5,834 bases of DNA from a virus (IMGVR_UViG_3300045988_007363:1-5834), one strand, 5' to 3'; positions 1 to 5,834 are shown, counted from the stretch's first letter. Notes: generated from the sequence alone by a model not told the origin. Program-made: numbers and translations.

Positions 1-99
1 GTACAACGCCGCAGAAAGCTGGCAACAGATGCTCAGCACAACACATATGACACCCTACGGACTGACAAAAGCATTAACAAAAATTGCAAGCGGCACAGA
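1..99. repeat. Terminal redundancy, left copy, identical to 5736-5834. This is an assembly overlap of a circular genome.
   Basis: Base-by-base comparison shows all 99 nt identical to the last 99 nt of the window. The repeat lies inside one continuous reading frame (VP2). Confidence 0.95.
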
Positions 100-223
100 C
101 GATGCAATCAAAGATGCAGTAAAACCAACAACAAAACAACCAGACAAAAAAAACTACGTTAAACCGCAAGACAAAACAGGCAAATACGGAGAAAAAAGGA
201 AACCGGGTGATTATTTAAAATGA
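2..223 (+). CDS. VP2: 3' part of the minor capsid / DNA pilot protein VP2, continuing the frame opened at 5095 across the circular junction. Bases 2-99 duplicate 5737-5834.
   Basis: Position 1 (= 5736) is the third base of a TGG codon in the 5095 frame, and that frame continues to TGA 221-223. The track lists only the 29-223 fragment. The tail is Lys/Pro/Thr-rich (KPTTKQPDKKNYVKPQDKTGKYGEKRKPGDYLK). The stop overlaps the VP4 start (ATGA). Confidence 0.85.
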   Translation, partial: YNAAESWQQMLSTTHMTPYGLTKALTKIASGTDDAIKDAVKPTTKQPDKKNYVKPQDKTGKYGEKRKPGDYLK

Positions 224-1239
224 GTTGCTACAAGCCATTAATAAGGCTGTACAACCCGAACGATAAAGACATTAGCGGGAGGGTGTATTCACTCTCCCGC
301 TTTTCTCAATTAGCGGGAAGACAGCTCAAATATGAAGATCTAATGTACAGGAAAGATATAATGTTGATACCATGCGGGCAGTGTATCGGATGCAGAATCA
401 GACAAAGAGAGGACTGGACAACACGAATAGAATTAGAAGCAAAAGATTATCCAAGAGAACAAGTCTGGTTTATCACGCTAACCTATGATGACAATCATGT
501 ACCGGGCATGATAGTAAATACAGGCGAAATCATGCGAAAAGTTCAATACGTCTGGAAGCCAGGAGAGAAGCGCCCTGAAAGCGTCCAAACGTTGCTGTAT
601 ACTGACGTTCAAAAATTCTTAAAACGCCTCAGAAAGGCTTATAGGGGCAAATTACGCTATTTTATAGCGGGAGAGTACGGAGAGCAGACAGCAAGACCAC
701 ATTATCACATGATACTGTATGGATGGCAACCGACAGATCTAAAACACCTATACAAGATACAACACAACGGATACTTTACAAGTGAATGGCTATCAAACAT
801 ATGGGGAATGGGTCAAATACAGATAGCACAAGCAGTACCAGAAACCTATAGATATGTTGCTGGATACGTCACAAAAAAAATGTATGAGATAGACGGTCAC
901 AAAGCAAACGCATACTACGAACTAGGGCAAGCAAAACCATTCGCATGCATGAGCCTAAAGCCAGGTTTAGGCGATCACTATTACAAAGAGCACAAAGCAG
1001 AAATCTGGGAACAAGGCTATATCCAATGCACAAACGGCAAACACGCACAAATTCCGCGCTATTATGAAAAAATGATGAAAGCTGAAAACCCACAAAGATT
1101 ATGGCGAATTAAACAGAACAGACAAGCAAAAGCAATTGCAGAAAACCGGCTAAAATACGAAAACGCAGACTTTGCAGAACAGTGCAAGACAAAAGAAAGA
1201 GTGATCAAGAAGCAAATGAAGAGAAAAGGGACACTTTAA
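220..1239 (+). CDS. VP4: Replication initiation protein VP4, an HUH rolling-circle endonuclease analogous to phiX174 gene A.
   Basis: The 339-aa ORF has an N-terminal MSCYKPL followed by the IPCGQCIGCRIRQREDW cysteine cluster typical of gokushovirus VP4. It carries FITLTYDD (motif 1), the HUH motif PHYHMILYG (motif 2), and the two-tyrosine YxxxY motif YVAGYVTKK (motif 3), as in phiX174-type initiators. Confidence 0.95.
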   Translation: MSCYKPLIRLYNPNDKDISGRVYSLSRFSQLAGRQLKYEDLMYRKDIMLIPCGQCIGCRIRQREDWTTRIELEAKDYPREQVWFITLTYDDNHVPGMIVNTGEIMRKVQYVWKPGEKRPESVQTLLYTDVQKFLKRLRKAYRGKLRYFIAGEYGEQTARPHYHMILYGWQPTDLKHLYKIQHNGYFTSEWLSNIWGMGQIQIAQAVPETYRYVAGYVTKKMYEIDGHKANAYYELGQAKPFACMSLKPGLGDHYYKEHKAEIWEQGYIQCTNGKHAQIPRYYEKMMKAENPQRLWRIKQNRQAKAIAENRLKYENADFAEQCKTKERVIKKQMKRKGTL

Positions 1240-1256
1240 CAGTGTCATGGTGTCAC

Positions 1257-1292
1257 ATAGCCCAGTACCTATCAAGTAAGGTACTGGGCTAT
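1257..1292 (+). other. Perfect 14-bp stem-loop with an 8-nt loop, 18 nt after the VP4 stop. It is a candidate terminator or ssDNA origin/priming structure.
   Basis: Bases 1257-1270 (ATAGCCCAGTACCT) pair without mismatch to 1279-1292 (AGGTACTGGGCTAT). The loop is ATCAAGTA. The following TGTCGTCT is only moderately T-rich. The structure is certain; its function is not. Confidence 0.6.
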
Positions 1293-1351
1293 TGTCGTCT
1301 AAAGAGTCCATGTATCAAACTATTCAGTCTATCAAATAGCTATACTTTTAT

Positions 1352-1397
1352 CGCGCGTGCGCACGCGCGCGAAGCGCGCACGCGCGCATGCGCGGCC
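1352..1397. repeat. GC island of alternating purine/pyrimidine palindromes. It is prone to cruciform, Z-DNA or stable hairpin formation and may also act as an intrinsic terminator.
   Basis: 39 of 46 nt are G/C in an otherwise A-rich genome. There is an 18-nt perfect palindrome at 1352-1369 (CGCGCGTGCGCACGCGCG) and a 12-nt perfect palindrome at 1383-1394 (CGCGCATGCGCG). The 12-mer GCGCACGCGCGC occurs twice (1359-1370, 1376-1387). An alternative 11-bp pairing joins 1352-1362 with 1376-1386. Alternating Y/R tracts of 20 nt (1352-1371) and 21 nt (1374-1394) are present, followed by GCCTTTT. Confidence 0.85.
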
Positions 1398-1409
1398 TTT
1401 TAGGCACTA

Positions 1410-1439
1410 TTGTTCGCAAACTCACAAGTGCCGTATAAT
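1410..1439 (+). promoter_or_regulatory. Candidate sigma70-type promoter (weak -35, perfect -10).
   Basis: TTGTTC at 1410-1415, an 18-nt spacer, then TATAAT at 1434-1439, immediately downstream of the GC hairpin and T-run. The -35 matches only 3/6. Confidence 0.3.
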
Positions 1440-1479
1440 ATATAACTTGTTGTAGGAGTAGTAGTAGGGGTGGTGGAAA

Positions 1480-1647
1480 AGTTGAAAAGTACTAAAATTT
1501 AACGCTAAAGCGTAAATAAAAAGCAAAAAACACTGTTGAAAGTTTTGTTGAAAACTTGTTGAATTGTTGAAAGTTCGTCAAAATGACGGAAATCATTGTG
1601 CAACATTTTGTTGAAAACCTGTTGAAAGTGTTGAAAGTGTTGAAAAC
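1480..1647 (+). repeat. Iteron-like array of TGTTGAAA(AC/GT) repeats, all in the same orientation, in two clusters.
   Basis: Exact TGTTGAAA starts at 1534, 1546, 1565, 1609, 1620, 1629 and 1638. Near copies are AGTTGAAA at 1480 and TGTTGAAT at 1557. Spacings are 12, 11, 8 nt and 11, 9, 9 nt. Bases 1621-1647 form a 9-bp tandem run, GTTGAAAGT x2 followed by GTTGAAAAC (one mismatch). The clusters are separated by the small hairpin CGTCA-AAA-TGACG (1576-1588). Confidence 0.9.
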
Positions 1648-1680
1648 GCGCACAGCGCTTACAATGAATGGATTAGCCGA

Positions 1681-1699
1681 GCTCCGCATACGCTCCGCA
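1681..1699 (+). repeat. Direct repeat GCTCCGCA x2 with an 11-nt period.
   Basis: GCTCCGCA occurs at 1681-1688 and 1692-1699. The function is unknown. Confidence 0.5.
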
Positions 1700-1743
1700 C
1701 GGCAAGGCGCTAAAGCGCTCTCGAAACAAAGGAGCAAAACCAG

Positions 1744-1774
1744 GTTACAAGAGAAAGTTACAATTTTATTACAA
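1744..1774 (+). repeat. Three (G)TTACAA repeats immediately upstream of the peptidase promoter.
   Basis: GTTACAA occurs at 1744-1750 and 1757-1763, and TTACAA at 1769-1774, with spacings of 13 and 11 nt. They end 14 nt before the -35 box. Confidence 0.5.
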
Positions 1775-1787
1775 AACAGCAAAACCA

Positions 1788-1816
1788 TTGAAAAGCCTAT
1801 TGACAAGTAGTATAAT
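1788..1816 (+). promoter_or_regulatory. Near-consensus sigma70-type promoter for the peptidase-to-capsid gene train.
   Basis: TTGAAA at 1788-1793 (5/6), an exact 17-nt spacer, then TATAAT at 1811-1816 (6/6). It lies 44 nt upstream of ATG 1860 with AGAGGA in between. Confidence 0.6.
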
Positions 1817-1859
1817 AAAATTAGAGGAAGGTAAACAAAATAGAAGAGGATTAACAAAC

Positions 1860-2252
1860 ATGGAAATCAAAGCATATTTAGCAGAAGCGCAAGGAAACGA
1901 ACAAATTACAGATCACTTCAAAGTAAAGGAATTTGCATGCAAAGACGGAACACCAATCGTATTCGTTGACGATTATTTAGCAACCATTCTAGAAATCGCA
2001 AGAAAAAAAATCAATAAACCAATTATCATCACAAGCGGATATCGCACAGTAAGCCACAACAAAAAAGTAGGCGGAGCAAAATATAGCTATCACATGCGCG
2101 GCATGGCGGCAGACATCAGAGCGAACGGAATGACGCCAAAAGAACTTGCAAAAGTACTAAACAACATCGTCCCAAACAACAGCGGCATCATCGTATATGA
2201 CAACTGGGTACATTTCGATACACGAAATGAAAAATACAGAAAGGGGATGTAA
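1860..2252 (+). CDS. Zinc D,D-/L,D-peptidase of the M15 (LAS) family, resembling Peptidase_M15_3 / YcbK-like cell-wall peptidases. It is a putative peptidoglycan hydrolase.
   Basis: The 130-aa product from ATG 1860 has an upstream SD (GAGGA 1846-1850, 9-nt spacer). Signature sequences are HFKVKEFACKDG, then ITSGYRTVSHNKKVGGAKYSYHMRGMAADI, then WVHFDTR. This gives the expected H/D/H metal triad (H78, D85, H118). The track start at 1788 is a TTG lying inside the promoter, so I prefer 1860. Confidence 0.85.
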   Translation: MEIKAYLAEAQGNEQITDHFKVKEFACKDGTPIVFVDDYLATILEIARKKINKPIIITSGYRTVSHNKKVGGAKYSYHMRGMAADIRANGMTPKELAKVLNNIVPNNSGIIVYDNWVHFDTRNEKYRKGM

Positions 2253-2253
2253 A

Positions 2254-2367
2254 ATGGCACTGATTTCCATTAAAGACGTCAAGCAAGCAATCCGCATTAT
2301 GATGCAGATTCTCGAAAAGCTTGACGAAATCTATCATGCATTGCACGATAGTACCAACAAAAATTAA
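2254..2367 (+). CDS. Small hypothetical protein, 37 aa (MALISIKDVKQAIRIMMQILEKLDEIYHALHDSTNKN).
   Basis: It is not in the ORF track because it is too short. ATG 2254 lies 1 nt after the peptidase stop, with SD AAGGGG 2241-2246 (7-nt spacer). It exactly fills the gap to the next SD. It is predicted amphipathic-helical with no TM segment. Confidence 0.45.
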   Translation: MALISIKDVKQAIRIMMQILEKLDEIYHALHDSTNKN

Positions 2368-2379
2368 AAGGAGTAAACC

Positions 2380-2607
2380 ATGATGCACAAAACATGGAAC
2401 GTAAGAGACCAGACCACAGAAGCACTAAAAGAACTACTCATACGAAAATTAAAAGAAATTGACAACGACTACAAAATGCTTAGAAAAGTGTCAAATATCG
2501 AAGACGCTAAAAAGCTAGTAGATGAAATGTGGCAAATAAGAAGCTTTGCAAACGAAATTGATTTAGAGCTAATACGAAGGGAATATGAAAATGGCGCGAC
2601 ATCGTAA
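2380..2607 (+). CDS. Hypothetical protein, 75 aa, charged and helical.
   Basis: AAGGAG at 2368-2373 lies 6 nt upstream of ATG 2380. The ORF is co-directional and fits the gene train. I recognise no motif in it. Confidence 0.7.
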   Translation: MMHKTWNVRDQTTEALKELLIRKLKEIDNDYKMLRKVSNIEDAKKLVDEMWQIRSFANEIDLELIRREYENGATS

Positions 2608-2713
2608 GAAAATGAGCGGCGCAAAAGATCGCCGAATATTCAACACAACTGCACGAAAGACGAAAACTATCAACCTTAGCCAGAAACCTATGCGCGGTGG
2701 CATCCGGCTGTAA
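2591..2713 (+). CDS. Small basic DNA-binding/packaging protein (gokushovirus VP8/ORF8-like, functional analogue of phiX174 J).
   Basis: It is not in the ORF track. The sequence is MARHRKKMSGAKDRRIFNTTARKTKTINLSQKPMRGGIRL, with 13 of 40 residues Arg/Lys. The C-terminal PMRGGIRL matches the MRGGIR[LF] ending I recall for Chlamydia-phage-type ORF8 proteins. An alternative in-frame ATG lies at 2585. The ORF overlaps the end of the previous gene by 17 nt. Confidence 0.75.
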   Translation: MARHRKKMSGAKDRRIFNTTARKTKTINLSQKPMRGGIRL

Positions 2714-2729: not shown

Positions 2730-2969
2730 ATGGAACATCTGTATTATGGACTGTGGGACAACGTAGCAAAGTGCTATGCATGGGTAGGCGAGAATAAGAA
2801 CAACGCAACGTTTGCACGAATGTGCAATGTAATGGAAAAGGATGAAAAAACCTTTGTAGGGCAGTCGCCGGAAGATTACACCGGCTATAAGTTAGCAAAA
2901 TTCAACGATGAAAACGGCGAATTTGTCAACGACAAGGAAAAAGTCTGGGAGGGCAAGCCGCATGAATAA
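2730..2969 (+). CDS. VP5-like non-structural protein, 79 aa.
   Basis: AAGGA at 2718-2722 lies 7 nt upstream of ATG 2730. The N-terminal LYYGLWDNVAKCY...NNATFARMC and central SPEDYTGYKLAKFNDENGEF resemble the pattern (xFxVxDxK...A.R.F...PEDFxLYxIGxFDdxxG) I recall for gokushovirus ORF5/VP5. The track start at GTG 2697 lacks an SD. Confidence 0.6.
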   Translation: MEHLYYGLWDNVAKCYAWVGENKNNATFARMCNVMEKDEKTFVGQSPEDYTGYKLAKFNDENGEFVNDKEKVWEGKPHE

Positions 2970-3360
2970 ACGATACGAGGAAGGGCGAGAGCCCTTCTTT
3001 TCCGAAAGCGGAGAAAAATTCCGGAAACAATACGTCTGGACAAAAGACGAAAAAGGACAAGAAGTACTGCAAGAAACAGCACCGATCGAAATTCAGCAAG
3101 AAATCGAAAGCTATGCTGAAGAATGCGATATTAAGAACATTATCCGAAAAGCAAGTTTTGACCCGCAATTTCTGAAAAGTCTATCACAGGGAGCACTAGA
3201 AGGAACAGAAGTGGACATCACCGAATTTCCACAAAACATTCATGAGTATCACCGCATGATAGCAACCGCACAGGCAAACGCAATAAAGCTTGAAGAGCTG
3301 AAAAAAATGGAAGCGGAAAAAGCAGAAGCAAAACCTGAAGCAAAGGAGGAAGAAAAGTGA
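2962..3360 (+). CDS. VP3: Internal scaffolding protein VP3, 132 aa.
   Basis: GGAGG at 2948-2952 lies 9 nt upstream of ATG 2962, which overlaps the upstream stop (ATGAATAA). The motif ECDIKNIIRK matches the conserved ECDIN.I..K core of Chlamydia-phage-type scaffold proteins. The C-terminal tail is acidic with alternating lysine/glutamate. It lies directly upstream of the capsid gene. The track start at 2908 has no SD. Confidence 0.75.
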   Translation: MNKRYEEGREPFFSESGEKFRKQYVWTKDEKGQEVLQETAPIEIQQEIESYAEECDIKNIIRKASFDPQFLKSLSQGALEGTEVDITEFPQNIHEYHRMIATAQANAIKLEELKKMEAEKAEAKPEAKEEEK

Positions 3361-5054
3361 ATCGAAACAATGAACGACACTTCAACCAAATTCCGGAAAT
3401 GAAAGCAAGCCGAACACGATTCAACCGTGACCAGACTATTCTCACAACGTTTGATGCTGGAAAACTGATTCCGTTTTACGTTGACGAAGTATTGCCGGGC
3501 GATACATTTAACGTGAACACGACAGCAATCATCCGAATGACGACACCGAAATTTCCGGTGATGGATGATGCATTCATCGACTTCTATTACTTCTATTGTC
3601 CAAATCGCATCCTATGGAAAAACTTTAAGCAGTTCATGGGAGAAGTAGAAAACAAACCCTGGATGCCAGAAAAAACGTACAAAGTACCAGAAATAAAAAT
3701 CGAAGGAACTGCAAATTCGGCAAAACCTCTCGAAAGAAGCATCCTAGACTACATGGGAGTGCCGACAAAAGTAAAAAGCACCTTCAAAATTAACGCATTG
3801 CCAATCAGAGCATATGTAATGATCTGGAACGAATTTTTCAGAGACGAAAATGTAGGAAATGCGGCAGTATGGAAAGATGATGACAGCGATGTAACATACA
3901 CCCAGAGCTACAATGAAAACTCAACCAACGCGGACAAAATGGAAAAAGAGCTAAGAGAAGCAATTACCGGCGGACTCTGTCTACCGGTAAACAAATTCCA
4001 CGACTACTTCTCAAGCTGTCTCCCCTATGCTCAACGTGGGCCGGCAGTGGCGCTACCAATGGAAGGTAATGCACCTATCAGATTGGGAAACACCAACGGA
4101 GAATACCAAGATTTCCGCGGACCATTAGAAATGGTAGTAGACGCACATGGAGCCAACACACCCGGTTCTCTGGTATACACAAATAGCACAGGAGCACCCG
4201 GTGAAAAGAAAACGATGCAGTTCACCGGAAAAGACAGAACAACCAACGAACTAGGCGGAGGGGGCTGGATGTATGCAGACATCAGCACAGTAACCGCAAC
4301 AACCATCAACGACCTGAGAAAAGCCGTAGCAGTGCAACAGTACTACGAGGCACTAGCACGAGGGGGTAGCAGATACCGCGAACAGGTACAAGCACTGTGG
4401 GATGTAGTAATCAGCGATAAAACCGTACAGGTGCCGGAATACCTAGGCGGTGGCAGATACCACGTAAATATTAACCAAATCGTACAGACAAGCGGACAGC
4501 AGACCAACACGGACACGCCTATTGGTGAAACTGGTGCAATGTCAGTAACGCCCATCAATGAAAGCAGTTTTACAAAATCTTTCGAGGAACACGGATTTGT
4601 AATCGGAGTATGTTGTGTACGACACAATCACAGTTACCAGCAAGGGCTTGAACGATTCTGGAGCCGAAACGACAGGCTTGACTACTACGTGCCTCAATTT
4701 GCAAACCTGGGAGAACAGCCGGTAAAAAAGAAAGAAATCATGCTCACTGGCACGGCAACAGATGAAGAAACCTTCGGATACCAAGAAGCATGGGCAGAAT
4801 ACAGAATGAAGCCAAACCGAGTATCTGGCCTGATGAGAAGCAACGCAGTCGGAACGTTAGACTTCTGGCACTATGCCGACAACTATTCAACCGTACCGAC
4901 ACTGTCGCAAGAGTGGATGGCAGAAGGAAAGAAAGAAATCGCAAGGACATTGATCGTGCAGAACGAGCCACAGTTTTTCGGCGCAATCCGAGTAGCAAAC
5001 AAAACCACAAGACGTATGCCGTTGTACAGCGTACCGGGCTTGTACAAACTGTAA
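3357..5054 (+). CDS. VP1: Major capsid protein VP1 (F-like jelly-roll capsid).
   Basis: The protein is 565 aa. The N-terminal FNQIPEMKASRTRFNRDQTILTTFDAGKLIPFYVDEVLPGDTF is the canonical gokushovirus VP1 signature. AAGGAGGA at 3343-3350 precedes GTG 3357 (GGAGG core 7 nt upstream), which overlaps the VP3 stop (GTGA). A downstream alternative ATG lies at 3399. Confidence 0.95.
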   Translation: MNRNNERHFNQIPEMKASRTRFNRDQTILTTFDAGKLIPFYVDEVLPGDTFNVNTTAIIRMTTPKFPVMDDAFIDFYYFYCPNRILWKNFKQFMGEVENKPWMPEKTYKVPEIKIEGTANSAKPLERSILDYMGVPTKVKSTFKINALPIRAYVMIWNEFFRDENVGNAAVWKDDDSDVTYTQSYNENSTNADKMEKELREAITGGLCLPVNKFHDYFSSCLPYAQRGPAVALPMEGNAPIRLGNTNGEYQDFRGPLEMVVDAHGANTPGSLVYTNSTGAPGEKKTMQFTGKDRTTNELGGGGWMYADISTVTATTINDLRKAVAVQQYYEALARGGSRYREQVQALWDVVISDKTVQVPEYLGGGRYHVNINQIVQTSGQQTNTDTPIGETGAMSVTPINESSFTKSFEEHGFVIGVCCVRHNHSYQQGLERFWSRNDRLDYYVPQFANLGEQPVKKKEIMLTGTATDEETFGYQEAWAEYRMKPNRVSGLMRSNAVGTLDFWHYADNYSTVPTLSQEWMAEGKKEIARTLIVQNEPQFFGAIRVANKTTRRMPLYSVPGLYKL

Positions 5055-5064
5055 GAAAGGAGGA

Positions 5065-5092
5065 AGCCCGGAGAAATCCGGGCTATTATTTT
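5065..5092 (+). terminator. Intrinsic terminator/attenuator-like hairpin between VP1 and VP2.
   Basis: A perfect 7-bp GC-rich stem pairs AGCCCGG (5065-5071) with CCGGGCT (5078-5084). The loop is AGAAAT and is followed by ATTATTTT. Confidence 0.5.
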
Positions 5093-5094
5093 AA

Positions 5095-5834
5095 ATGAAT
5101 GTATTATCAGGACTCTTAACAGGACTCAACGTAGCGGGAAACGTAGCAAACACGCTCAACACACTAACAAATACAGGAAAAAACATCGCGGGAATGTTCG
5201 GCGGCTGGGGACAAACCGGAAACAGCCAAAGCCAGGGCGGGAGCGTAAGCCAGGGAGGCGGGCACTCGGAAAGCGGAAGCCAATCCGGAACAAACATCCA
5301 ACAGGTAAATGACTGGCTTAAACAGGCATATGCATACCAAGGGCAAGAAGCCGCCATGCAAGGTAAATACAACAGTCAAAGTATGCTTAAACAGATGGGC
5401 TACAATACCTTACAAGCAATAATGCAAGGCGTATATAACCACATTGAAAACAGCGTAGCAATGAACTACAACAGTGCAGAAGCACTAGCAAACCGTGAAT
5501 GGCAAGAACACATGTCAAGCACCGCATACCAGCGTGCAGTTGAAGACATGAAAAAAGCGGGACTTAATCCAATCTTAGCCTTTTCAAACGGCGGAGCGAG
5601 CACGCCGGGCGGCTCAGCGGGAACAATCAGCGGTGCAAGTATGGGACTTGCAAGCAGCAGCGCACTAGGAGTAAGCAGAAGCAGCGGATTCGTACCGAAC
5701 GCATACGAAAGCACTAGCTGGTCGAAAAGCGACTGGTACAACGCCGCAGAAAGCTGGCAACAGATGCTCAGCACAACACATATGACACCCTACGGACTGA
5801 CAAAAGCATTAACAAAAATTGCAAGCGGCACAGA
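5095..5834 (+). CDS. VP2: Minor capsid / DNA pilot protein VP2, 5' part. The frame is open to the window end and continues at position 100 of the circle (287 aa in total).
   Basis: An in-frame TAA (5092-5094) immediately precedes ATG 5095, and no stop occurs through 5834. The hallmark NREWQEHMSSTAYQRAVEDMKKAGLNPILAF (5491-5583) is characteristic of gokushovirus VP2. There is a Gly/Ser/Gln-rich linker at 5218-5289. It is absent from the ORF track because it has no stop inside the window. Confidence 0.9.
   Translation, partial: MNVLSGLLTGLNVAGNVANTLNTLTNTGKNIAGMFGGWGQTGNSQSQGGSVSQGGGHSESGSQSGTNIQQVNDWLKQAYAYQGQEAAMQGKYNSQSMLKQMGYNTLQAIMQGVYNHIENSVAMNYNSAEALANREWQEHMSSTAYQRAVEDMKKAGLNPILAFSNGGASTPGGSAGTISGASMGLASSSALGVSRSSGFVPNAYESTSWSKSDWYNAAESWQQMLSTTHMTPYGLTKALTKIASGT
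5736..5834. repeat. Terminal redundancy, right copy, identical to 1-99.
   Basis: See the left copy. All 99 nt are identical. Confidence 0.95.

Follow-up and report, generated by a model that had tools for sequence, protein, structure and literature searches.

A predicted M15-family zinc peptidase, probably an endolysin, in a gokushovirus genome without a holin-like plus-strand protein

We know of no gene that accounts for lysis in gokushoviruses in general. In phiX174, lysis is achieved from a very small microvirus genome and without a holin by protein E, a small transmembrane (TM) protein that is encoded by an overprinted gene, inhibits MraY and is non-enzymatic. The gene analysed here is similar to E in that a lysis function would be carried by a very small microvirus genome with no holin, but its predicted product is a wall-degrading enzyme. 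Roux et al. (2012) found M15_3 peptidases in five Gokushovirinae of the human gut and in six Alpavirinae. They showed that such genes were acquired horizontally; four gokushovirus peptidase genes clustered with Faecalibacterium. Gram-positive hosts were speculated on and an endolysin role was proposed (PMC3394797). Later studies described the peptidases of microviruses as accessory genes that recur, are acquired horizontally and are associated with lysis (Kirchberger and Ochman 2020, PMC7062461; Kirchberger et al. 2022, PMC9239249). Zhang et al. (2024) described them as recurrent lysis-associated accessory genes, cultured Roseobacter microviruses included. An endolysin-type role has been proposed for microvirus peptidases repeatedly (PMC3394797, PMC9239249, PMC11499846).

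Purified Gp7 (~146 aa) of microvirus Ebor, which infects Rhodobacter capsulatus, degrades peptidoglycan in vitro (PMC11980548). This finding establishes that functional wall-degrading enzymes can be carried by microviruses. Gp7 differs in class from the peptidase studied here; structurally it comes closest to the amidase-type LysC (6SSC). Ebor belongs to the Tainavirinae and has a Gram-negative host. It also carries a gene for a predicted membrane protein of 45 aa, Gp1; no membrane protein is encoded in the present genome. We found no enzyme assay of any M15_3 microvirus peptidase in the literature. A preliminary description of the present DNA had stated that no functional study was known; this appears to hold for M15_3 enzymes, but Ebor Gp7, an amidase-type enzyme, has been assayed.

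The closest described counterpart of the locus is in the GenBank record KX513868.1, "Human gut gokushovirus". Its "peptidase M15" (ARQ16010.1) is 90% identical to the peptidase, is also 130 aa long and is likewise encoded between VP4 and VP5; VP4 is 92% identical. The two genomes belong to the same species-level cloud and show no difference of substance. KX513868 and others have extra ORFs between promoter and peptidase gene, whereas here the peptidase gene directly follows the promoter. The preliminary description had regarded the peptidase as atypical and sporadically reported. That view is not supported: such genes were described in 2012, were recurrent in later surveys and include this 90% identical GenBank protein. 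Known since 2012, and confirmed in later surveys, are the gene with its family and horizontal origin, the link to Faecalibacterium and Clostridia and the proposed endolysin role; the find is real and ordinary. The present analysis adds the fixed slot of the gene, its divergence independent of the backbone, its viral base composition, its homologs in gut Clostridia, the TM neighbours of its homolog in phage Toutatis, and a 37-aa gene downstream.

The window (the whole stretch of DNA analysed, 5,834 nt) has identical first and last 99 bases, a terminal redundancy left by assembly. The genome is therefore circular and complete, at 5,735 nt, in agreement with the preliminary description, which had taken it for a complete small microvirus genome. 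Profile searches against Pfam and PHROG identified a gokushovirus-type microvirus. Every gene is on the + strand, which is unusually A-rich (38%) and T-poor (18%). The slot that holds the peptidase gene has the order VP4, non-coding region, promoter, peptidase gene, 37-aa gene. An Rfam scan of the whole window matched no family. Features are listed in Table 1.

Table 1. Features of the genome, in window coordinates
Feature	Position	Strand	Basis or remark
VP4, replication initiator	220..1239	+	profile search
Non-coding structured region, VP4 to promoter, ~550 nt	1240..1787	+	conserved across relatives
Perfect 14-bp hairpin	1257-1292	+	in non-coding region
CG-alternating palindromes	1352-1393	+	in non-coding region
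Conserved block	~1433-1490	+	in non-coding region
Seven exact TGTTGAAA repeats	1534-1645	+	0.35 expected by chance
Promoter-like site: TTGAAA (1788-1793), 17-nt spacer, TATAAT (1811-1816)	1788..1816	+	consensus scan
Shine-Dalgarno-like GAGGA, 9 nt 5' of peptidase ATG	1846..1850	+	read from sequence
Peptidase gene, 130 aa, stand-alone Peptidase_M15_3/LAS zinc peptidase	1860..2252	+	ATG at 1860, stop ends at 2252
Shine-Dalgarno AAAGGGGA of 37-aa gene, within last codons of peptidase (YRKG)	2240..2247	+	alignment
37-aa gene (MALISIKDVKQAIRIMMQILEKLDEIYHALHDSTNKN)	2254..2367	+	codon periodicity, conservation
Downstream 75-aa gene, soluble, helical-looking product	2380..2607	+	codon positions 0.177/0.125/0.34
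J-like DNA-binding peptide	2585..2713	+	profile search
VP5	~2730..2969	+	profile search
Scaffold VP3	~2962..3360	+	profile search
VP1, major capsid protein	3357..5054	+	Pfam Phage_F, E = 2e-137
VP2, pilot protein, 287 aa, spans junction	5095..5735 plus 1..223	+	profile search

The peptidase matched Pfam PF08291 (Peptidase_M15_3) with E = 7.4e-23 and 81.2 bits, against a cutoff of 23.2. The match spanned residues 19-120 of the protein and positions 2-108 of the 108 in the profile. PHROG 894 ("endolysin") was matched with E = 3.3e-43. The zinc-binding H-x6-D, the C-terminal H and the substrate-binding Arg of the SxxR motif were all present. Residues R62, H78, D85, H118 and D120 were invariant in an alignment of 37 homologs (66-91% identity), and the motif and triad positions given in the preliminary description proved correct. 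We propose H78, D85 and H118 as Zn ligands. H78 and D85 aligned with positions 154 and 161 of 1LBU; H118 was assigned as the third ligand from the end of the Pfam profile and its invariance, not from residue-level structural superposition. Substitutions per site at codon positions 1, 2 and 3 of the gene were 0.231, 0.136 and 0.439 among 79 relatives.

An AlphaFold2 model of the peptidase had a mean pLDDT of 90.3 and a pTM of 0.85. In a Foldseek search of solved structures, the first match was 1LBU (probability 1.00, TMq 0.50), the Streptomyces albus G zinc D-Ala-D-Ala carboxypeptidase, which is the M15A/LAS prototype. By sequence, too, 1LBU was the solved structure that matched best. Hedgehog N-domains, VanXYc, ChiX, LdcB and the RB49 endolysin followed. 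These structural neighbours indicate that the peptidase has the LAS fold. Matches among viral models were phage "Peptidase M15/M15A" proteins with TM-scores up to 0.89, and included marine microvirus peptidases. The full-domain Pfam match and the LAS fold of the model bear out the preliminary identification of an M15-family zinc peptidase; the enzyme almost certainly belongs to the M15/LAS family. The peptidase and 1LBU share the same core fold, with 29% identity over 89 aligned columns, but 1LBU is a secreted bacterial enzyme with an extra N-terminal wall-binding domain, and its substrate specificity is not transferable to the peptidase.

M15 enzymes include DD- and LD-carboxypeptidases, endopeptidases and L-Ala-D-Glu endolysins. 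Because the family includes carboxypeptidases and housekeeping endopeptidases, and because the peptidase shows weak similarity to MepK and to the DD-carboxypeptidase 1LBU, a non-lytic function was considered: remodelling of the wall in the course of infection, superinfection exclusion, or alteration of a receptor by a carboxypeptidase. We regard such a function as extremely improbable. Equivalence to the L,D-endopeptidase MepK (YcbK) was rejected, as the score for NCBIfam NF053624 was 41.5 bits, far under the family cutoff of 185; the score for Pfam PF05951 was 25.6 against a cutoff of 27. The nearest relatives of the peptidase are phage endolysins in lysis cassettes. An enzyme with a non-lytic function would, moreover, face the same problem of access to the wall as a lysis enzyme.

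The promoter-like site upstream of the peptidase gene is sigma-70-like, matches the consensus at 11 of 12 positions and scored highest in the genome-wide scan. It ends 44 nt 5' of the peptidase ATG, and the peptidase gene is the first gene downstream. The site was conserved in the alignment with relatives L005, L006 and L003, and several relatives have TG before the -10 element (extended -10). The preliminary description had placed the peptidase gene first after the strongest promoter, and the simple consensus scan agreed. The longer form of the peptidase, with an upstream start at TTG (1788), lacks conservation and overlaps the promoter.

The preliminary description had listed a 75-aa ORF product as a possible helper. 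The + strand ORF of this length upstream of the peptidase gene (1583..1810) is not a gene, and most of it simply translates the TGTTGAAA repeat array. Where the window has the ATG of this ORF, relative L002 has ATA, and L003 and L008 have a deletion. Its substitutions showed no codon periodicity (0.071/0.083/0.089). For the spurious ORFs of 1240..1787, 51 of 74 alignments were gapped. The 75-aa helper had been named by length only, and a second ORF of this length, downstream at 2380..2607, is evidently a gene (see below).

TM segments were searched for by a hydropathy scan, rather than with a dedicated predictor such as TMHMM or SignalP, as 19-residue Kyte-Doolittle means with a threshold of ~1.6. 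The peptidase showed neither a signal peptide nor a TM segment; its highest 19-residue mean was 0.91. Its N-terminus (MEIKAYLAEAQGNEQ) is acidic and hydrophilic. No hydrophobic stretch that could form a signal or SAR segment was present in the N-terminal sequence MEIKAYLAEAQGNEQITDHFKVKEF, and no lipobox-like segment was found at the N-terminus. The scan was extended to all + strand ORFs of at least 20 aa in the three frames of the circularised genome, overprinted ORFs included. None reached TM grade, the maximum being 1.12 (VP2), and no TM protein of the phiX174 E type was present in these frames. The preliminary description had reported neither a signal peptide or TM segment in the peptidase nor a holin- or spanin-like + strand ORF, and both statements were upheld. 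Related genomes, 93 in number, contained 2,697 + strand ORFs, of which 26 were of TM grade, nearly all from two over-long, chimeric-looking contigs; no TM-grade + strand ORF was conserved across the 93 genomes.

On the - strand, 42% of ORFs were of TM grade, because this strand is T-rich. Roux et al. (2012) noted a complementary-strand ORF beside one peptidase gene (PMC3394797). In the present genome, a hydrophobic 121-aa ORF on the - strand (1492..1857) was considered as a complementary-strand holin and rejected. It is 48-65 aa long in relatives and shows no codon periodicity (0.079/0.068/0.094), hence it is spurious.

A canonical holin-endolysin cassette combines a soluble enzyme with a holin. 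The peptidase is such a soluble enzyme, without secretion signal, but no TM protein is encoded with it. Its nearest relatives outside the microviruses, at 45% identity over the whole peptidase length, are the stand-alone endolysins of the Faecalibacterium siphoviruses FP_Toutatis (AUV56799.1) and Lelie. Like the peptidase, these endolysins are single-domain proteins of ~130-137 aa without a signal, and have the same N-terminal and catalytic motifs. The Toutatis homolog (137 aa) is annotated as the endolysin of that phage. Two TM proteins come directly after it, the first of 131 aa with its TM segment at the N-terminus (Kyte-Doolittle 2.59) and the second of 105 aa with the segment at the C-terminus (1.91); the microvirus has no such + strand proteins. 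This is the canonical setting of a holin-dependent cytoplasmic endolysin, with the two TM proteins as holin-like candidates.

Some endolysins are secreted or exported with a chaperone, including Lys44 of phage fOg44 and LysA of mycobacteriophage Ms6. The peptidase might similarly cross the membrane independently of a holin, by a host-dependent or non-classical route like those reported for certain endolysins of Gram-positive hosts, and remain inactive at the wall for as long as the membrane potential persists. The clade as a whole lacks a holin and any TM protein, which is consistent with such export, as is the basic character of the peptidase (pI 9.4, net charge +6). We nevertheless consider export unlikely, in view of the lack of any N-terminal signal, SAR or lipobox-like segment, the maximum hydropathy of 0.91, the homology of the N-terminus to that of the holin-associated Toutatis endolysin, and the lack of a chaperone-like partner specific to the peptidase.

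To place the gene among related viruses, we used 80 relatives from IMG/VR whose VP4 was 88-94% identical. Wherever a contig covered the whole locus, the peptidase was there. Apparent losses in L052, L044, L087, L011, L074 and L060 were due to assembly, as these linear contigs break inside the gene. Identity of the peptidase to that of the window ranged from 45 to 92% and was mostly 60-68%, compared with ~90% for VP4 and ~92% for the 37-aa protein. In 23 fully covered genomes, the identities of backbone genes co-varied (Spearman rho 0.62-0.69). Peptidase identity, in contrast, was uncorrelated with that of VP4, VP1 and the 37-aa gene (rho 0.20, 0.05 and 0.01). This pattern fits an exchange of peptidase alleles between conserved flanks, with the alleles diverging faster than the backbone. 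Such exchange was described in other microviruses by Kirchberger et al. (2022; PMC9239249).

A survey of microvirus carriers, one of the checks named in the preliminary description, gave 421 IMG/VR contigs with this peptidase subfamily. The best 80 of the 421 contigs were nearly all microvirus-sized. A search of the protein database gave 1,321 homologs, more than 1,300 protein clusters, and the top 120 of the 1,321 were all on contigs of at most 6.2 kb. Some of these 120 are named "peptidase [Microviridae sp.]". The complete circular sister genomes MG945157, KT264799 and KT264798, with VP1 ~44% identical to that of the window, share the small genes and have neither a peptidase nor a TM protein.

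At third codon positions, the peptidase gene has 45% A and 14% T, and VP4 has 43% A and 15% T; the Toutatis homolog has 15% A. Since its base composition matches the virus and not the Faecalibacterium-phage homolog, the peptidase gene is a long-term resident. When each bacterial species was represented by a single genome, a scan revealed 113 loci encoding the nearest cellular homologs, at 36-49% identity. Almost all were in gut Clostridia (Faecalibacterium, Oscillospiraceae, Lachnospiraceae, Eubacteriales and Peptococcaceae), and together with the Toutatis and Lelie endolysins they mark the donor lineage. Clostridiales have been predicted independently as hosts of gut gokushoviruses (Shah et al. 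2023; PMC10159846). The strong Shine-Dalgarno sequences and the sigma-A-type promoter would fit a Firmicute host. The host is probably a single-membraned, thick-walled Clostridial bacterium. A scan of 185,579 representative bacterial genomes for relatives of VP1, which could indicate a host through a prophage, found none. We are not aware of any microvirus grown in culture on a Gram-positive host.

A thick-walled Clostridial host would also pose a barrier at entry, and the peptidase might act there: a few copies in the virion would digest the wall locally for delivery of DNA by VP2. M15A domains do occur in tail and baseplate proteins of tailed phages, as Gp5 OB-fold fusions and in "cell wall hydrolase" proteins of ~1,000 aa, and Ebor Gp7 was detected in virions in trace amounts (PMC11980548). 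The present peptidase, however, is a stand-alone protein with no structural domain and with no fusion or similarity to structural proteins, and the characterised proteins most similar to it are likewise stand-alone, endolysins encoded in lysis cassettes. Further points against entry are that a T=1 capsid leaves little room, that sister viruses with the same VP1/VP2 architecture have no peptidase, and that the peptidase is swapped independently of VP1 and VP2, which would be unexpected for a virion component that has to fit the capsid. An entry enzyme is thus distinctly unlikely.

These findings point instead to a role at exit, and we consider it likely that the peptidase acts in lysis. It would be a small, soluble, cytoplasmic zinc peptidase that cleaves peptide bonds of peptidoglycan, and most likely is the endolysin of this gokushovirus; activity on peptidoglycan is presumed. 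In the distant past, an ancestor of this lineage of gut gokushoviruses would have acquired the gene from gut Clostridia, where it belonged to the lysis cassette of a tailed phage or prophage; only the enzyme was taken, and the holin was left behind. The gene now occupies a fixed slot and would be exchanged among related viruses. Transcribed from the strong promoter at 1788-1816, the peptidase would build up in the cytoplasm in a folded and harmless form. It would reach the wall only after the cytoplasmic membrane had been compromised by some function of the viral backbone, and would then speed up or complete the breakdown of the thick wall in a probably single-membraned Clostridial host. Because sister gokushoviruses without the peptidase share the backbone, the backbone must hold a lysis function that is independent of the peptidase. 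On balance we favour this account as a whole, namely an acquired cytoplasmic M15_3 endolysin released by a membrane function of the backbone; the membrane step, taken on its own, is tentative.

An abundant clade of human and animal gut viruses thus keeps a cytoplasmic wall-degrading enzyme and encodes no membrane protein that would release it, and herein, and in the conserved, unannotated small proteins beside the enzyme, lies the residual interest of the locus. The peptidase and the conserved small proteins of the backbone would offer a direct route into the question of gokushovirus lysis. The same question bears on whether gokushoviruses infect thick-walled Clostridia.

Two small genes downstream belong to this backbone. 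The downstream 75-aa gene is shortened in relatives L002 and L005. Its product matched a 68-aa ORF of the peptidase-less genome L091 (BLASTP E = 4e-8) and had no match in Pfam, PHROG or NCBIfam; it is a real backbone gene. The 37-aa ORF is a real gene under strong constraint. Its substitutions at the three codon positions were 0.101/0.042/0.26, and 75% of its changed codons were synonymous, as in VP4. Its product is among the most conserved proteins of these genomes. The peptidase gene is an insertion into a backbone that carries the 37-aa and 75-aa genes.

The Shine-Dalgarno sequence AAAGGGGA of the 37-aa gene was kept in the nine closest relatives compared, third codon positions included. 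In the alignment of 37 peptidase homologs, R127 and K128 were invariant and G129 nearly so. The peptidase stop codon (2250-2252) and the ATG of the 37-aa gene (2254) are separated by 1 nt. The location of the Shine-Dalgarno sequence inside the end of the peptidase gene and the 1-nt gap suggest that the 37-aa gene is translationally coupled to the peptidase gene. The 37-aa protein has a strongly amphipathic helix pattern with heptad periodicity, a hydrophobic moment of 0.70 (18 residues) and a net charge of ~0.

The preliminary description had named the 37-aa product as a candidate helper of the peptidase. It could be a dedicated partner, a TM-less holin-like disruptor or an activator, made in a fixed ratio to the enzyme through translational coupling. 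The conserved Shine-Dalgarno sequence and 1-nt gap, the strong purifying selection, the amphipathic pattern and the retention of both genes in L009, a relative whose VP1 is only 40% identical, all agree with a partnership. Nevertheless, the 37-aa gene was found at 65-75% identity in the complete peptidase-less genomes L091, L092 and L094, and its divergence did not track that of the peptidase (rho 0.01). The protein has a net charge near zero and no TM segment, and its heptad pattern would equally fit a coiled-coil assembly or regulatory protein. The ORF is therefore real, as the preliminary description had it, but a dedicated partnership is very improbable. As it is present in the peptidase-less sister clade, the 37-aa gene is a backbone gene.

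A TM-less breach of the membrane by the backbone is conceivable because these genomes encode no membrane protein, keep a cytoplasmic endolysin under selection and have peptidase-less sisters that must also lyse their host. The backbone may encode such a breach in place of a holin, and the 37-aa amphipathic protein would be the best candidate; we regard this proposal as a long shot. If true, the 37-aa protein would represent the long-missing lysis function of gokushoviruses and a new kind of endolysin release. The 37-aa gene was found in 31 GenBank microvirus records, in almost none of which it is annotated. With the 56-aa stop-to-stop ORF as query, its family comprised 443 protein clusters, all on microvirus-sized contigs.

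Two small genes follow the peptidase gene. The 37-aa protein is among the best conserved in these genomes (~92% identity, vs. ~76% for the major capsid protein VP1), and annotation of its gene is nearly always missing from GenBank records. Its family comprised 443 clusters, found only on microvirus-sized contigs, and the gene is also present in the sister gokushovirus clade that has no peptidase. No database family was found for the 75-aa gene. Pairwise comparison with a 68-75-aa ORF of the peptidase-less clade (1617-1844 in L091, a complete genome of that clade) gave E = 4e-8, and the two share the motif IRKL...EDAKKLV.E. In the peptidase-less clade this counterpart sits before the 37-aa gene, whereas in the window the 75-aa gene follows it; gene order differs between the clades.

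Most relatives have one or two additional small ORFs in the interval from the conserved promoter to the peptidase: L001 (~1530-2010), L007 (~4050-4500), L003, L005, L006, L008 and L009. In most of these genomes the gap between the gene of replication initiator VP4 and the peptidase was 640-990 nt, vs. 620 nt in the window. Because the inserts vary from genome to genome, the promoter-peptidase interval is a second variable slot. No TM segment was observed in the insert ORFs of the relatives. In six linear IMG/VR contigs of close relatives (L011, L044, L052, L060, L074 and L087), one end falls within the peptidase gene or at its edge. Assembly breaks seem to be concentrated at this gene, a pattern that would be expected if it were the most divergent locus among co-occurring strains.

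Three IMG/VR "microvirus" sequences came from over-long contigs: L034 (10,917 nt), L041 (8,781 nt) and L045 (from a 10,711-nt contig). L045 contains two distinct VP4/VP1 sets, 90% and ~40% identical to those of the window, indicating that two distinct microviruses were joined. Nearly all apparent TM ORFs originated from L034 and L041. The coding strand of the window clade (the window, L001-L009 and L011-L090) contains 38% A and 18% T; Dulem virus 195 (L010), also a peptidase-bearing microvirus, is T-rich (32% T). The A bias of the window clade makes the + strand poor in hydrophobic codons and leaves 42% of the ORFs on the - strand resembling membrane proteins.

Several noncoding elements were found in addition to the two small genes.

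Small genes, repeats and potential secondary structures in the window
Feature	Position	Strand	Description
Stem-loop ATAGCCCAGTACCT / AGGTACTGGGCTAT	1257-1292		perfect 14-bp stem, 8-nt loop; directly 3' of VP4
CG/CA alternation	1351-1395		~45 nt, giving nested palindromes
TGTTGAAA array	1534-1645	+	seven exact copies on a single strand, 112 nt; 0.35 expected by chance
37-aa gene MALISIKDVKQAIRIMMQILEKLDEIYHALHDSTNKN	2254-2367	+	heptad a/d amphipathic pattern
75-aa gene	2380-2607	+	real coding signal
Terminator-like hairpin AGCCCGGAGAAATCCGGGCT	5065-5084	+	followed by T-rich tail; directly after VP1 stop, before VP2

The TGTTGAAA array, kept in relatives, is iteron-like in appearance and possibly belongs to a replication origin or has a regulatory role. 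A spurious 75-aa ORF (1583..1810) is also a product of these repeats. The hairpin behind VP4, kept across the close relatives compared, may serve as a terminator or an origin hairpin. At the CG/CA alternation the exact sequence varies among relatives; however, the GC-rich alternating purine-pyrimidine character is retained at an unchanged position, which suggests that selection acts on a structure (a hairpin or Z-DNA-prone DNA) and not on the sequence itself.

The window has an exact 99-nt direct repeat at its termini (1-99 = 5736-5834); it represents one full circular genome (5,735 nt) plus an assembly overlap. The gene of pilot protein VP2 (287 aa) spans the circular junction (5095..5735 plus 1..223).

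Outside the microviruses, the highest peptidase identity was 49%, in Bacteroidales MAG contig JAFZDU010000001.1. The homolog is present twice (loci L114 and L118), close to each end of this 70,871-nt contig, possibly a phage genome with terminal redundancy that was binned into the MAG. Both copies depart from the Clostridial pattern of peptidase homologs.
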